A stretch of 64,000 nucleotides of DNA. Source: Promethearchaeota archaeon (lineage in GTDB: Archaea > Asgardarchaeota > Lokiarchaeia > Sigyniarchaeales > SOKP01). Shown here piece after piece: positions 803-11,628 of this stretch; within the stretch, counting starts at the first letter, position 1; each line of letters begins with the position of its first letter. Below the pieces are notes generated by a model, which saw only the letters and a list, made by a program, of their open reading frames with translations, did not search any database and was not told where the DNA came from. Where the stretch lies: assembly GCA_048939995.1 (NCBI GenBank), contig JBHLOY010000002.1:224001-288000 (forward strand), in the 5' to 3' direction. Both the position numbers and the translations under genes were made by a program.

Positions 803-843
803 TTCGAACTTTGAGCGAAGTTTAGAAGCTATTTCTAAAAATA
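803..843 (+). promoter_or_regulatory. 41-bp conserved motif, copy 1 (dyad TTCGAA-N13-TTAGAA + TCTAAAAATA)
   Basis: TTCGAACTTTGAGCGAAGTTTAGAAGCTATTTCTAAAAATA aligns without gaps to copies at 5875-5915(-), 7482-7522 and 11588-11628. Confidence 0.75.
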
Positions 844-1047: not shown

Positions 1048-2049
1048 TTGATTAATTTTGATCTTATTGAACGTTTTTTTTCGTCTATTGCAATAGTAGT
1101 AATAATTTTTTGTTTTATATTTTATTTTTCTCAAGGGCGTAAGAAAGAGGTTCTACATGAAAAAATTTTGATGTATAGTTTTGCAAGTTTTTGGCTCAGT
1201 ATTTCTTTAGCAAGAATATTTTATTATTTTTCTGACATTTTTTTAGAGGGAACTTACTCAGGTGATTTAAGCACACTTATTGAATCATATGATCTCTTAA
1301 ATTATATTATTCTTTACTTTTATCTATATTCTCATATATATATTTTAATAAGTATTATAGCATTAAGTGTTATGTTTATATGGTTTTCAATAAAGTCAAA
1401 AAAAGAATTTCAGCTAGTTTCCTCAGTAGTAGCCATTGGATTTACAATATTTTTAATAGGATGGGTTTTTGAAACGACGGCATTAAAGCAATTAAACCTT
1501 ATACCTCCAGCATTACCATCTATTTTTATAATAGTAGGAACCATAATTGCAACGATACCTCTAATTGTGGATATTGAGTTTTTTTCAAGCAAATTAATTA
1601 ATTGGTTAGTTTTAATTTCAATTGTTTTGATTTTACTTTTTTTTAGTTTAACCATTTTTACGAATCTCCCATTAGTACTTTTAAGTCAGATTATAATCTT
1701 AATTTCAACCTCTGTTTTAATTATGGTGATCATTTTTGTGGCATTTTACATAATCAAGAGAATTAAAGTATCAGAAGTTCAGGAAATAGTTCCAAAGGAG
1801 GAACTTAAAGATTTTATAAAGACTTTTATGAAGCCTGCTACCATTACAATCGAGGAAATTCAATTATATAAAGAGAAAGGATTATGTTTGGTGTGTAAGA
1901 GTAAAGTCACACGATTAAATTATGTCTGTCCCAAATGCTATGCATTATATTGTTTAAAATGCTCAAGAGCATTAACTAATTTAGAAAATAGTTGTTGGGT
2001 CTGTGAAACCCCCTTTGATGAATCTAAACCTATGAAAAAGTCTAAATAG
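1048..2049 (+). CDS. Multi-pass (~7 TM) membrane protein with C-terminal C4C4 RING-like zinc finger; candidate E3 ligase
   Basis: About seven hydrophobic segments, then CLVC-x10-CPKC-x4-CLKC-x10-CWVC; lies upstream of the JAMM/E1/E2 genes; TTG start. Confidence 0.6.
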   Translation: MINFDLIERFFSSIAIVVIIFCFIFYFSQGRKKEVLHEKILMYSFASFWLSISLARIFYYFSDIFLEGTYSGDLSTLIESYDLLNYIILYFYLYSHIYILISIIALSVMFIWFSIKSKKEFQLVSSVVAIGFTIFLIGWVFETTALKQLNLIPPALPSIFIIVGTIIATIPLIVDIEFFSSKLINWLVLISIVLILLFFSLTIFTNLPLVLLSQIIILISTSVLIMVIIFVAFYIIKRIKVSEVQEIVPKEELKDFIKTFMKPATITIEEIQLYKEKGLCLVCKSKVTRLNYVCPKCYALYCLKCSRALTNLENSCWVCETPFDESKPMKKSK

Positions 2050-2549: not shown

Positions 2550-3566
2550 ATGTTAAAGCCTCCTCAAATCTTATTTACCGGAGAAAATGGTGTTGGTAAA
2601 ACAACTATCTTGAATTTATTTCCAGAAGATATTATTTTAGAATTAGACGATAACTTTAATGAAATTTTTCAAAAGCAAGTTAATATTACTGGATTCAAAG
2701 GTATAGAACATTGTATTTTAAGAGAAATTGATTTAAGAGAATTAGTAGACAATTTTTTTTCTTTTCAAAAACTACTACAGGCTCTTGATATCATTCTCAT
2801 TGTAACTGATTCAACTGAACGAAATATTAAATATACTTATAATTTATTTTCTGAATTGAAATATAAATTACCTAAAATTGATTTTTATATAATTGCTAAT
2901 TTTCAAGACAGAAAGTCAATTTCAATGCCCATAGAAAAAATTGAATCTATATTAAAAGAGAAGGTTTTTGGATATTCGGCCATCCAAGAGGATTCAAAAG
3001 ATTCTATGACTGAAATTATTAAAGAGATTTTAGAAATTTCAATTATTAAAAAACAAGGAAAAAAGCTTTCATTTGATAAAATTGATTACAATACAATTTG
3101 GTCAGACATCGAAGAAGCAAGATTGTTGGAAAAGAAAGGAGACCATTATGCGGCATCAAAAAAATTCTCAATTGCTGGATCTAAATTTAAAATACTAAAT
3201 TCAAATGAGGAAAAAGAAGAATTTAAAGCGTTATACAATTTATGTAAGGCTTGGGAGTGTATAGAATTAGCTGAAGAATATGAGGATGTTTCGAAGTTTG
3301 CTGAAGCTGTGAAATTTTTTGATCAAGCAATTGAATCTCTATATGATGAGAAATTAAAATTTTTAGTATCCGCTAATTTAGCACATTGTGAAGCTTTAAA
3401 ATTAGGAATGGAGTCAGATACATCAGATCAACTACATATTAAAGAAAAATTATATTTAGAAATAATCGATTTAATTAACAAAGCAGTTAATTTATATAAA
3501 AGAGGAGGTTTTGAAAAAGAAGCGGAATTTGCTTTAACTACCTTGAATAAATTAAAGAGCCTTTAA
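2550..3566 (+). CDS. Divergent Ras/Arf-superfamily small GTPase domain fused to a TPR-like helical domain
   Basis: G1 GENGVGKT, hydrophobic strand IILIVTD, G4-like ANFQD, G5-like YSA; no DxxG; C-terminal alanine-rich helical repeats. Confidence 0.75.
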   Translation: MLKPPQILFTGENGVGKTTILNLFPEDIILELDDNFNEIFQKQVNITGFKGIEHCILREIDLRELVDNFFSFQKLLQALDIILIVTDSTERNIKYTYNLFSELKYKLPKIDFYIIANFQDRKSISMPIEKIESILKEKVFGYSAIQEDSKDSMTEIIKEILEISIIKKQGKKLSFDKIDYNTIWSDIEEARLLEKKGDHYAASKKFSIAGSKFKILNSNEEKEEFKALYNLCKAWECIELAEEYEDVSKFAEAVKFFDQAIESLYDEKLKFLVSANLAHCEALKLGMESDTSDQLHIKEKLYLEIIDLINKAVNLYKRGGFEKEAEFALTTLNKLKSL

Positions 3567-3619: not shown

Positions 3620-4114
3620 TTGACGTTATTCGAAAAAGATTTTCTATTTCCAGTATACATCGATAAAAATACTTTAAATCATATTGATGAATTATGCAAA
3701 AATTCTGATAGAGAACTTTTTGGCTATTTAATTGGTTTAATTTTAAAATGGAAAAAGAATAAATATATTATTATAAAAGAACAGATTTATATTAAAAATA
3801 CAGTTAGAAGTAATAAATTTAACACATCCCAAATTGAAGGAACTGCTGGAAAATACGAACAGGAATTTCAAAAGTTGAAACATAGTATGAGGAACGAGAA
3901 TTTACGAGTTGTAGGATGGTGGCATTCCCATATCAATTTAGGGTGCTTCTTATCCTTAACTGATATTCATACACAAGAATATTTTTTTCCTGAACCTTAC
4001 CAAGTTGCATTAGTAGTTGATCCTATTCGAGAGGAATACAAATTTTTTACATTAGATGCAGGCTCAAAAAAGAAATACAAAACGCTAAGTTATGCTATTA
4101 TATCTTCAACTTAA
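3620..4114 (+). CDS. JAB1/MPN+ (JAMM) metalloisopeptidase, Rpn11-like
   Basis: RELFGYLIG (catalytic Glu) and VVGWWHSHINLGCFLSLTD = HxH-x7-S-x2-D JAMM motif; ALVVDP. Confidence 0.92.
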   Translation: MTLFEKDFLFPVYIDKNTLNHIDELCKNSDRELFGYLIGLILKWKKNKYIIIKEQIYIKNTVRSNKFNTSQIEGTAGKYEQEFQKLKHSMRNENLRVVGWWHSHINLGCFLSLTDIHTQEYFFPEPYQVALVVDPIREEYKFFTLDAGSKKKYKTLSYAIISST

Positions 4115-4131
4115 CAATTTAGTTTATATCT

Positions 4132-5013
4132 ATGCGTAAGAAAGAAAATCAAGGAATTAAAGTGATTGGAACGGATTCCATAGATTCAGATAGATTCGAT
4201 CGCCAAAAGAGAATTATTGGTTGGGATCAAACTATTATTTCTAATGCGACAATTATGGTAATTGGTGCTGGAGCTACTGGAAATGAAGTTATAAAAAATT
4301 TAGCTTTAGTCGGAGTTGGAAAGATATTTTTAATTGATTATGATTTCATTGAAACTTCAAATTTAAGTCGTTGTGTGTTGTTTAACCCTAAAGTAGCAAA
4401 GGATAAAGAATACAAAGCAGATGTTATTAAAGATGTGTGTAGAGACTTAAATCCTGATGTCGAAGTTGTTTCAATTAAAAAAGACTTAAATTCAATAGAT
4501 AAAACTCTTTATAGCAAGTGTGATGTAATATGTTCTTGCTTAGATAATCTTGAAGCACGGATAGAAGCTAACAATTATGCATATTATAATCGAATTGCTT
4601 TTGTTGATTCTGGGATCGACGAATTTTTTGGTTCAGTTCAAGCAGTATATTCAGAAGTTGAAAATTCAGCTTGTTTGCAATGCGGTATATCAGAAAAGGA
4701 TTTGGATTTAATGTGGAAAAAATTTTCTTGCACTGGAGAGGAATTAAGGTCTGAAGAAGGTGAAACCACAAATAAAATAGCAACAATCATTACGACTACT
4801 TCAATAATAAGCGGTATTCAATCTCAGCAGGTTTTAAAATTTTTACTTGGAATTAAATATTATAAGGAAGATAAAAAATGGAATCCTTATATTGGAGCAC
4901 CATTGGTTGGTAAGCAATTAATTTATAATGGCCTAACAAACAGTTTCAACATTATTGATAAAATAAAAGATCCAAATTGTTGGACTTGCTCATACAAAAA
5001 ATCTAAGATTTAA
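4132..5013 (+). CDS. Ubiquitin-activating E1-like enzyme (ThiF/UBA family)
   Basis: DRFDRQ, GAGATG, D-x-D-x3-TSNLSR, LDNLEAR, Zn pairs CLQC and CWTC, candidate catalytic Cys in FSCTGE. Confidence 0.92.
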   Translation: MRKKENQGIKVIGTDSIDSDRFDRQKRIIGWDQTIISNATIMVIGAGATGNEVIKNLALVGVGKIFLIDYDFIETSNLSRCVLFNPKVAKDKEYKADVIKDVCRDLNPDVEVVSIKKDLNSIDKTLYSKCDVICSCLDNLEARIEANNYAYYNRIAFVDSGIDEFFGSVQAVYSEVENSACLQCGISEKDLDLMWKKFSCTGEELRSEEGETTNKIATIITTTSIISGIQSQQVLKFLLGIKYYKEDKKWNPYIGAPLVGKQLIYNGLTNSFNIIDKIKDPNCWTCSYKKSKI

Positions 5014-5030: not shown

Positions 5031-5558
5031 ATGCCAGAATTACCCTTTGAGATATGGAAAGAAAGAGTAAATAATGAGATAAAGATCCTAAGAAATATTA
5101 GCCTCATTGAAAATAAATCTATAGCATGGCATGATAATAGTGTAGAATTATGGATTAATTTAAGTGCCTTTGGATTCGTTAAAAGAGAAATTGAAGGAGT
5201 TATCAATGTAAAACCTCAGATGAATCACCGAATTCTCATTAAAATAAATAGATCCTTTCCATATCCAGGAGGGATTGATTTTGCTTGGTATTCAGAAATA
5301 TTTCACCCAAATATCCATCCCATTGAATTAAAAGGATTGAAAACTATAGGCACAGGTTATATTTGTTTAAATATTTTAAGACAATGGACAAAATTATCAG
5401 ATTTGGAAACTACAGTTAAATCCCTTGAAAAATTAGTAGAGAATCCCAATCCAGAGGATCCTCTTCAATATGATATTTGTATTGAAGCTGCTGAATTCTT
5501 TAAAAGAAATTCAATTCAAGAACTTAAAAAGATTTATAAAAAAGAAAATTATATTTAA
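5031..5558 (+). CDS. Ubiquitin-conjugating E2-like enzyme (UBC fold)
   Basis: FPYP...IFHPNI...GYICLNILRQW (HPN motif, catalytic Cys, Trp), NPNPEDPL; AGGAGG RBS. Confidence 0.93.
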   Translation: MPELPFEIWKERVNNEIKILRNISLIENKSIAWHDNSVELWINLSAFGFVKREIEGVINVKPQMNHRILIKINRSFPYPGGIDFAWYSEIFHPNIHPIELKGLKTIGTGYICLNILRQWTKLSDLETTVKSLEKLVENPNPEDPLQYDICIEAAEFFKRNSIQELKKIYKKENYI

Positions 5559-5824
5559 GAATTAAAAAACAAACCTCCAATAACTTTTGTCCATAACATC
5601 AAAATATCATATTCTTTTAACCCAAATTTATGAATTGCCTCCCTAATTGATATTGCATTCGGTAATTCCTTTTCCTTATACACTAAAGCATAAGAACGTT
5701 GTTCTGAACTTATAAAACCCATATGTTTAACAACAATTTCTATAATACGCTCTATTATATGATGTTCCTTTACATCTAACTTTATTCTTTTGCCTGTTCT
5801 GGTATCTTCTATTGATAATTTCAT
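5555..5824 (-). CDS. Ubiquitin-like modifier precursor (GG at residues 83-84 followed by LFFNS)
   Basis: Aligns by eye with ubiquitin: TGKRIKLDV/TGKTITLEV, EQR/QQR, YKEKEL/FAGKQL, LMLWTKVIGG/LHLVLRLRGG; stop overlaps the E2 stop (convergent). Confidence 0.88.
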   Translation of the reverse strand: MKLSIEDTRTGKRIKLDVKEHHIIERIIEIVVKHMGFISSEQRSYALVYKEKELPNAISIREAIHKFGLKEYDILMLWTKVIGGLFFNS

Positions 5825-5874: not shown

Positions 5875-5915
5875 CATTTTTAGATTTGAGTTCGAAACTT
5901 TTCACAAAGTTCGAA
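5875..5915 (-). promoter_or_regulatory. 41-bp conserved motif, copy 2, ~50 bp upstream of the ubiquitin start
   Basis: Minus strand reads TTCGAACTTTGTGAAAAGTTTCGAACTCAAATCTAAAAATG (both TTCGAA half-sites perfect). Confidence 0.78.
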
Positions 5916-5922
5916 TTAGAGA

Positions 5923-7218
5923 TTATTCTTGTTCTTTCAACTTTTTATTAATTTCATCCAATATTTTATATTTTGGAAAATCTTTTAAAATTGAGGTTAA
6001 AATGGTTTTTTCTCTTTTTATTCTGTTATAATCCTCTAATTTTAGGTTAATTATATTTTGGAAAGCTAAACCCTTAAACTTGTCTACTAAATCATCTGAA
6101 ATTGTCTCTTTTTGATATTTCCCGAATAAGAAATTGATGTAATCTGGTACAAATTTCTTTAGAGGTGATTTTATATTTCTATCAAAGAGTTTATCAGAAA
6201 TATCATTTAAAATATTGTCTAATAAATCTACGGTTTGTGAATTTCTTTCTTCTTTAGAAATATCAGGTTGTAATCTTTTGAGATAACTAAACTTTAGAAT
6301 GTTCTCATCTATAATTAAATGCAACATTTTATCAATTTTGTCATCCTCTCGAAAATAATATACCACTTCATCATTAAGTCTTAAATTGAAAAATTTTGTA
6401 TCATATAAATCCTCTTCAGTAATCTTTTGCGTACAAAAAGTAAGTGTAGCTAGTTTAATATTATATTTAAGAGAAAAATTTTCTTGTGAAATATATTCTG
6501 GATATCGACTTGGATGATTTATAGAAAGAAATAATAATATTTTATAAAAATCTTCTTTTGATGGGAGTATATTCTCAATGAAGCTATAATTCAAATGATT
6601 GATTAAATCTAGAAATAAAATTTCAATTTGGCTATCTTCAACATTCTGCTCTTTAAGAAACCTTCTGACGTTTTCTTTGATACTTTCTATTTTATCTATT
6701 TCTTCTTCTAAAACTGATTGATAATCTAATTGGTATCTTTTCAGCATTTTATTATATCGTTCCTCACCTATTCTAGTGATTCTGTATTCCATGTTTTCAC
6801 TATCAACAAAACCTTTTTTCATTAAAAGATTTAAATATTTTGATAGAGAATTATGATTGAGAGAAAGAGGTTTTTCAATAAAATCTGACCACTTTAAATA
6901 GTCGTTATTAAATAACATCCACAAGATGATATGAGCATAATTTCTCTTGTTTAAAATGATCTCTGGAGGATATCTTAATTTTCTCTCAAATGAATCTTTA
7001 AATTTTAAATCTATATATCTTTTTTTACCTTCAGCAGTAGCTAGATAAACTCCTTTACTCTTTTTCTCAACATATCCGTTTGAAATTAATAATTTCATGT
7101 ATTTAGACAATGTAGCTAAGCTGATTTCTAACGGCTCATCTAAAAAGACAGACCAATTACATTCCTCATTATTATTAAGCATCCAGAGGATTATATATTC
7201 AAAATCTTTCTTCTCCAT
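5923..7218 (-). CDS. Tandem winged-helix (ArsR/MarR-like) DNA-binding protein with long helical C-terminus; probable regulator
   Basis: Two internal repeats IILWML-x-NN...W...PL...LSKY...L...G[YF]V...Y...T..G..RY. Confidence 0.8.
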   Translation of the reverse strand: MEKKDFEYIILWMLNNNEECNWSVFLDEPLEISLATLSKYMKLLISNGYVEKKSKGVYLATAEGKKRYIDLKFKDSFERKLRYPPEIILNKRNYAHIILWMLFNNDYLKWSDFIEKPLSLNHNSLSKYLNLLMKKGFVDSENMEYRITRIGEERYNKMLKRYQLDYQSVLEEEIDKIESIKENVRRFLKEQNVEDSQIEILFLDLINHLNYSFIENILPSKEDFYKILLFLSINHPSRYPEYISQENFSLKYNIKLATLTFCTQKITEEDLYDTKFFNLRLNDEVVYYFREDDKIDKMLHLIIDENILKFSYLKRLQPDISKEERNSQTVDLLDNILNDISDKLFDRNIKSPLKKFVPDYINFLFGKYQKETISDDLVDKFKGLAFQNIINLKLEDYNRIKREKTILTSILKDFPKYKILDEINKKLKEQE

Positions 7219-7481: not shown

Positions 7482-7522
7482 TTCTAAGTTCGCTAAAGGT
7501 TTCGAACTTAAATCTAAAAATA
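7482..7522 (+). promoter_or_regulatory. 41-bp conserved motif, copy 3
   Basis: TTCTAAGTTCGCTAAAGGTTTCGAACTTAAATCTAAAAATA. Confidence 0.7.
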
Positions 7523-7595: not shown

Positions 7596-8366
7596 ATGAA
7601 TAGAAATAACCTATCTAAATTGATTCTCTTAACCTTTCTGATGTTCGCTATTTTCAGTTTTATACCAGTAGTTGCAGCAAGCTCAGGTAATGCAACCAAA
7701 AGACCATTAGATGATTGGTTAGATCCGAATTACGCTGCTTTCCCGTGGGGCGAAGAAAATTGGGCTTTTTATGACTTTTGGAGCCCTTATTCTGGTTTAG
7801 TGACGAAGATGGGGTTACCTTGGCCTTTGGCTGGCTTCGGCCCATTTGTTAACGACATGATATACGAAAATAGTTTAGTAATAGGAGATACTATAATTGA
7901 TGGTAATATTAAAGAACGAGCATTAAACGATGGAACTGCTTTAATAACCCTGCAATTAAATGTGAAAAACGCTCCATGTTCAGTTTATGATTACTTCGAT
8001 TTTATTCTTTACTGTCTTGGGGCTGCTCCTTACCCTCAAGCCGTATTGGGAGATGGAATTGATGGGTATATCGATTATACCGTGTTAGTTAAATTTTATA
8101 TCCCTGAACCTGGAGCAGAGCTACCAAATGTATTTGATATGTGGTATTATTATGTCTCGATTAATATTCACGGTATTGGTTATGGAACATTAACAGAACG
8201 TGCAGTTGAGCTCGGTTTTGCCGAAACTGCTGGTGCACCAGGAATGGTAGAACTTCATCACATAGCCCTTTTTAAGCCTGATTTCAAAGAAACTCATCCT
8301 AAATATGATCCATTTTATGGTGATTTATGGCCAGTTGACTCCGTTGAAGTTTATGAATTGAGTTAG
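7596..8366 (+). CDS. Secreted hypothetical protein; paralog of 11681..12478
   Basis: Signal-peptide-like N-terminus; shared blocks RPLDDW, NVKNAP, HG-x-G-x-GT, K-x-DFK-x2-HP-x-Y, LW-x-VD. Confidence 0.85.
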   Translation: MNRNNLSKLILLTFLMFAIFSFIPVVAASSGNATKRPLDDWLDPNYAAFPWGEENWAFYDFWSPYSGLVTKMGLPWPLAGFGPFVNDMIYENSLVIGDTIIDGNIKERALNDGTALITLQLNVKNAPCSVYDYFDFILYCLGAAPYPQAVLGDGIDGYIDYTVLVKFYIPEPGAELPNVFDMWYYYVSINIHGIGYGTLTERAVELGFAETAGAPGMVELHHIALFKPDFKETHPKYDPFYGDLWPVDSVEVYELS

Positions 8367-11587: not shown

Positions 11588-11628
11588 TTCGAACTTTGCG
11601 CGAAGTTTCAAAGTCAAATCTAAAAATA
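11588..11628 (+). promoter_or_regulatory. 41-bp conserved motif, copy 4, ~50 bp upstream of 11681
   Basis: TTCGAACTTTGCGCGAAGTTTCAAAGTCAAATCTAAAAATA. Confidence 0.78.

Follow-up and report, generated by a model that had tools for sequence, protein, structure and literature searches.

A ubiquitin-like modifier with a probable read-through tail in an accessory ubiquitin system of Lokiarchaeia

Archaeal pro-ubiquitins with residues beyond the terminal di-glycine have already been published from Caldiarchaeum and Helarchaeota, and the locus described here adds a further case of a known kind of system. The full-length Caldiarchaeum pro-ubiquitin is refractory to E1 (PMC5654768). The Rpn11-like protease CsRpn11 contacts ubiquitin up to Gly78 and cleaves pro-ubiquitin, GFP fusions and conjugates; a bulky residue at the second place past the GG, as in Gly80Trp, blocks it (PMC6043591). 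The operon described in Helarchaeota contains a pro-ubiquitin ending in GG-SPKN (bioRxiv 10.1101/2023.07.25.550441). In Lokiarchaeota, the ubiquitin and ESCRT regions lie apart (bioRxiv 10.1101/2023.07.25.550441; PMC9192718).

The analysed window, a stretch of 64,000 nucleotides, contains a minus-strand open reading frame at positions 5555-5824 that encodes 89 amino acids with the C-terminus VIGG-LFFNS (below, the Ub gene). The mature ubiquitin-like domain (5573..5824) has 84 residues and ends in W-T-K-V-I-G-G; the tail LFFNS and the stop codon occupy 5555..5572. The frame faces a run of plus-strand genes. These encode a multi-pass membrane protein with a C-terminal eight-cysteine RING-like finger (1048..2049), a small membrane protein, a P-loop GTPase-like protein with TPR repeats (2550..3566), an Rpn11-like JAMM protease (3620..4114; E32, H102-x-H-x7-S-x2-D), a ThiF-family E1 (4132..5013; GAGATG45, two CxxC motifs and a putative catalytic Cys200 assigned by position only) and an E2 with the UBC fold (5031..5558; HPN92, Cys112). 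Upstream of the Ub gene and co-directional with it is the gene of a tandem winged-helix (wHTH) protein, a candidate regulator (5923..7218, minus strand). Named homologs come chiefly from Promethearchaeota (Loki) assemblies.

The following components of an archaeal eukaryote-like ubiquitin system were found: a beta-grasp modifier, the di-glycine, linked E1 and E2 genes, and an Rpn11-like JAMM. The catalytic motifs of the three enzymes are intact and there are no broken frames. The JAMM matches PF01398 with 43 bits. The best PDB matches of the E1 are eukaryotic UBA1 and UBA6, and those of the E2, which matches PF00179 with 40.5 bits, are eukaryotic E2s. The E2 residues H92, P93 and N94 and the catalytic cysteine are invariant in 107 sequences. 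The finger of the membrane protein, which is a candidate E3, matches zf-C3HC4_3 with 19.2 bits, below the Pfam cut-off.

The modifier was predicted by AlphaFold to adopt a beta-grasp fold (pLDDT 86.8), as had been expected from the sequence. Foldseek ranks ubiquitin and NEDD8 highest (E 3e-7, TMq ~0.70, 20-25% identity). In a wider structure search ubiquitin, the Ubl domain of parkin, ISG15 and SUMO are level at Z ~11, and thus the modelled fold places the protein in the ubiquitin subgroup but does not allow its assignment to ubiquitin, NEDD8 or SUMO. A Pfam search of the protein gave no match to PF00240. The terminal di-glycine is nearly absolute, with G84 in 119/119 relatives and G83 in 118/119. 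Compared with the ortholog at 98% identity, the gene has 17 synonymous and 2 non-synonymous codon differences; by codon comparison, it is shown to be under purifying selection.

The Ub gene was found in 13 of the 36 genus genomes searched, and 12 of these 13 also have an E2 ortholog. Conversely, all 12 genomes with the E2 ortholog carry the Ub gene, and the E2 ortholog occurs in none of the 23 genomes that do not. A separate JAMM-E2-E1-Ubl cluster is present in the same genome on contig C23. Given this distribution and the separate cluster, the locus is an accessory second ubiquitin system in Lokiarchaeia. The C23 cluster (L040:6486-11817, genome G000) encodes two Ubls in which the N-terminus is acidic and the last residues are STAG instead of GG. 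The genome also encodes a stand-alone 84-residue Ubl with a one-residue tail, GG-L (L034:1486-1740, G000:C28), and at least four further JAMM-like matches besides the JAMM of the locus. Family f4 has its Ub, E2 and JAMM-E1 genes at separate genomic places.

Several other arrangements were observed. Genome G061 has three copies of the Ub gene. Genome G036 (99% complete) contains the Ub gene and, with these queries, no close ortholog of the E1, E2 or JAMM. The Ub ortholog L024:1507-1782 (G005:C22) has in-frame stops past residue 29 and is a broken gene, or carries an insertion or an assembly error. At five loci (L002, L006, L030, L031, L033) Ub paralogs lie between wHTH and GTPase-TPR genes, and JAMM-E1-E2 does not adjoin them. 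Since its gene stands next to Ub even where JAMM-E1-E2 is missing, the GTPase-TPR protein is a candidate target.

The sequence-only reading took LFFNS for a five-residue cap that has to be cleaved off. The tail itself is real: it occurs in contigs of four runs from as many studies, one of the runs possibly being the source sample, and positions 5555-5575 are identical throughout, which rules out an assembly artefact. The cap as a feature is contradicted by the closest orthologs. Those at 98%, 94% and 84% identity have TAA directly after GG, whereas the window reads GGA GGT TTG, with TTG as codon 85; this codon is TAA, too, in a relative found alongside it in run X1. Most listed members of the 90% identity cluster have 84 residues, although some 84-residue database records could be partial, and the remainder have differing two-residue tails. 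The GG-stop was read straight from DNA in L001, L002 (second copy), L004-L007, L009, L010, L020, L030, L031 and L033. Of 119 relatives, 29 are tailless; the other 90 carry tails of 1-12 residues that are unrelated in sequence. A conserved propeptide was thus not found, either in the closest orthologs or among the family tails of 0-12 residues, and a conserved cap is ruled out. As the closest orthologs stop right after GG, LFFNS is, by sequence comparison, best read as a recent local stop-loss.

A quick and poorly resolved tree requires at least 21 gains or losses of the tails, five of the changes being forced by strong branches. They are short: 75 of the 90 have at most three residues, against ~20% expected under free read-through, the relatives being related genomes and not independent samples. 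No pattern links the presence of a tail to an adjacent JAMM; both states occur with and without one.

The other part of the cleavage claim, that this copy of the modifier needs trimming before use by the E1, was upheld: LFFNS follows the GG, and Caldiarchaeum provides the precedent (PMC5654768). As the Caldiarchaeum pro-ubiquitin is refractory to E1, the tolerance of tails in the family would imply that they are trimmed, and the pattern of tails indirectly suggests a protease that removes anything after GG. By analogy, the likely trimming enzyme is the Rpn11-like JAMM of the locus, which had been proposed from its position. Its motif is intact, and CsRpn11 (6FJV) is its best match in the PDB; cleavage by this JAMM is a prediction from the likeness. 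There is one structural difficulty. The second place past GG is Phe in LFFNS, and Phe, Ile, Leu and Tyr are common there across the family, and so the cleft of the locus JAMM would have to be roomier than that of CsRpn11.

One alternative assigns the trimming of short tails to a different enzyme, either another JAMM or a carboxypeptidase, and leaves the neighbouring JAMM to act as a deconjugase only. The bias to tails of at most three residues would suit exo-trimming, the JAMM is kept where Ub is tailless, another Ubl of the genome ends in GG-L, and other JAMM-like genes are present. However, CsRpn11 performs both jobs (PMC6043591), and the narrow space between convergent genes could be another reason why tails are short. 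We regard a separate trimmer as unlikely.

Another alternative is decay at the strain level, in which the untrimmed stop-loss tail inactivates a modifier whose E2 had lost its acidic tail earlier. Indeed, an acidic C-terminal tail, DD-IIII-DD, is present in ~114/120 E2 orthologs (P0124-P0241), even in family f4, and has been lost from the E2 of the window and that of L001. The gain of the one tail and the loss of the other are both recent and at the same junction, bulky residues past GG can block CsRpn11, and the system is dispensable, as its occurrence in 13/36 genomes indicates. On the other hand, tails occur in 76% of relatives and many of them are bulky (FF, YY, YFY). The frames and motifs of the enzymes are unbroken, the same allele is seen in four studies, and the only change specific to the window relative to L001 and L004 is the conservative K61R. 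Decay of this kind appears very improbable.

The explanation that we consider probable is that the product of the gene serves as modifier in an accessory ubiquitin system of eukaryote type whose JAMM trims a drifting tail, LFFNS being a functionless read-through. The E1 would adenylate Gly84 and form a thioester at Cys200, and would then hand the modifier to Cys112 of the E2. Transfer to lysines of the targets may be guided by the RING-like membrane protein, and the JAMM would strip the modifier off again. The same JAMM would read residues up to GG, like CsRpn11, and would also trim any short extension. If its recognition ends at GG, the stop codon is free to drift, and LFFNS would be one recent read-through of this drifting stop. 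Three observations weigh against this explanation: the Phe at the place where Gly80Trp blocked CsRpn11 (PMC6043591); the other JAMM-like matches, at least four in number, so that the trimmer need not be the neighbouring JAMM; and the loss of the E2 tail, which could signal partial decay.

K52 had been aligned by eye with ubiquitin K48 and taken as a hint of chain formation. The phmmer and profile alignments agree with this equivalence. However, the position holds Lys in only 62 of 119 relatives (52%), against 38 with Gln and 14 with Arg, and therefore gives no support for chain formation. By the same measure K12 (the K11 equivalent), K15, K19, K33 and K66 are conserved in 93-100% of the 119 relatives, and K52 as a chain site is not supported by conservation. 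Two marks of canonical ubiquitin, a PF00240 match and a conserved K48 equivalent, were not found in the modifier. In Caldiarchaeum, the conserved K48 residue is not among the modified lysines (PMC5654768).

The stop codons of the E2 (5556-5558, plus strand) and Ub (5555-5557, minus strand) genes share the TTAA at 5555..5558. This 4-nt overlap had been read as a possible source of antisense interference. The overlap is present, but it is the modal convergent spacing in the genome (36/503 pairs, taken from a crude ORF call). The two genes are convergent in all 18 distinct genus-level E2-linked loci examined, with gaps ranging from -4 to +118 nt, and the gap is -4 in only two of them. Being both ordinary for the genome and not conserved at the locus, the overlap was rejected as a feature with a special role, and nothing seen here points to interference. 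Neither the overlap nor K52 carries special information.

The Ub gene is preceded by a 25-bp dyad, TTCGAA-N13-TTCGAA, with an A-rich box, TCTAAAAAT (5876..5915, minus strand). The motif has six copies in the genome, all inside 16 kb of contig C17; these score 30-58, and two shuffled genomes gave 0 and 2 matches at 17 bits and none at 22 bits. The other copies of the dyad and box are at window positions 803-842, 7482-7521 and 11588-11627 and at G000:C17:220056 and 220154. The copies at 7482 and 11588 lie before the genes at 7596 and 11681, whose products have signal-peptide-like N-termini. Together the six copies define a possible wHTH regulon that does not extend beyond 16 kb. A sigma-70 promoter scan, with a model ill-suited to archaea, gave matches at chance level.

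All wHTH-linked loci examined have kept the dyad before Ub, even those of paralogs at ~70% identity without adjacent enzymes, and it was not found in the examined loci that have no wHTH gene. The strict pattern is present in the five searched genomes with a close wHTH ortholog and in 0/56 others. The dyad and box are a candidate operator/promoter, and the dyad is most likely the operator of the adjacent wHTH protein, through which this protein probably sets transcription of the modifier in the wHTH-linked subclade. Termination of the wHTH gene at the dyad is disfavoured, as the copies at 7482 and 11588 lie between divergent genes. The copy at 803, before the gene of the RING-like membrane protein, could have coupled Ub to the enzyme operon. 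This was rejected: the copy is not conserved in L001, L004 and L005, and probably arose as a side effect of the duplication of a neighbouring module. The wHTH protein itself (5923-7218) has 431 residues and is a short member of a large genus-specific family; the other members have open frames of ~630-1030 residues, and there are eight matches in this genome.

It had been proposed that the modifier can be switched independently of the enzymes. This is plausible for the wHTH-linked subclade, where the Ub gene has its own conserved dyad, but does not extend to most other genus loci, in which Ub, without the motif, follows a gene of the same direction for a RING-like membrane protein or a GTPase. 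At many of these loci one to three co-directional RING-like membrane genes precede Ub. Two or three such genes in tandem are directly upstream of it at L007:4305-5729, L009:4273-5735 and L010:3130-5725, and suggest an expanded receptor/E3 family.

Taken as a whole, the sequence-only reading held that LFFNS is a regulatory cap, that K52 supports K48-like chains and that the Ub and E2 transcripts interfere. The tail, the K52/K48 alignment and the overlap are each present, the convergence is kept in all 18 E2-linked genus loci, and in the wHTH clade the dyad is conserved before Ub, while L001, L004 and L005 do not have it before the gene of the RING-like membrane protein. Against this, 7 of the 18 E2-linked loci are tailless, including the three closest relatives; the K52 lysine is variable; the overlap is the commonest spacing of the genome; and the unlinked genes of family f4 mean that adjacency is not required. 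We give this combination very little credence. The cap, the K48-like lysine and the antisense overlap fail as adaptations.

A more far-reaching interpretation, which we put forward as doubtful yet conceivable, is that the locus encodes a second, non-ESCRT pathway of some Lokiarchaeia, closer in behaviour to SUMO than to ubiquitin. Such a pathway would be inducible through the wHTH operator, which is common to the modifier gene and to genes of secreted proteins; the RING-like membrane receptors would serve as E3 and the GTPase-TPR protein as a substrate, and the usual acidic tail of the E2 would be SIM-like. The DD-IIII-DD tail, in which a hydrophobic core accompanies the acidic residues, resembles a SUMO-interacting motif. 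When the L004 Ub and the acidic tail of the E2 were modelled as a complex, the score (0.09) was uninformative either way. In the literature on Asgard ubiquitin, of which our coverage was incomplete, no paper was found on this Ub family or on a SIM-like tail of an Asgard E2. If true, this interpretation would show several Ubl pathways side by side in an archaeon, with signalling coupled to receptors.

Returning to the explanation by a trimmed, drifting tail, such a freely drifting short tail would be comparative evidence for GG-directed processing in living Asgard cells, and the tails that occur naturally supply a ready-made set of substrates for work on JAMM specificity. As a second and accessory Ubl system of Loki archaea with a candidate regulator, the locus bears on how early several parallel Ubl pathways arose.

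By analogy, the locus may be said to work like the ubiquitin systems of Caldiarchaeum and Asgard archaea. It shares some properties with bacterial E1-E2-Ubl-JAB defence systems (PDB 8TYZ): an accessory distribution, JAB, E1, E2 and Ubl genes together, and the fold of the modifier (Z 10.1). However, its E1 resembles eukaryotic UBA1 (E 2e-24) much more closely than it does CBASS-type E1-E2 models. A search with PADLOC v2.0.0, in which relevant Ubl models may be missing, gave no match for Ub or the E2 and only generic matches for the E1 and the JAB domain.

With the eukaryotic precursors of ubiquitin, NEDD8 and SUMO the modifier shares the fold (Z ~11) and a GG followed by a removable tail, and with ubiquitin also the K11 and K48 equivalents and a basic residue at the position of R72 (118/119 relatives). 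It differs from eukaryotic ubiquitin in a core longer by eight residues, low identity, the variable K48 position and the absence of a lysine at the K63 position.

The Asgard Ub-ESCRT clusters (bioRxiv 10.1101/2023.07.25.550441; PMC9192718) likewise have an Asgard host, a short tail after GG and clustered E1, E2, RING and JAB genes. No ESCRT or UEV genes were recognised among the scanned neighbours of the locus, and in contrast to these clusters it is a patchy second system in a genome with another cluster on C23.

In Caldiarchaeum subterraneum (Ub/E1/E2/srfp/Rpn11; PMC5654768, PMC6043591), as in the locus, a beta-grasp modifier extends past GG and is accompanied by a stand-alone E1 and E2 with an Rpn11-like JAMM adjoining. 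However, CsUb has a propeptide of nine residues and is 31% identical to human ubiquitin, whereas the Ub of the locus has a labile tail and 20-25% identity. In the latter, which unlike CsUb does not match PF00240, R9, V48 and W78 replace the L8/I44/V70 patch. Finally, CsUb is in an operon with a small soluble RING protein, whereas the Ub gene of the locus faces its enzymes and the E3 candidate is a membrane protein.
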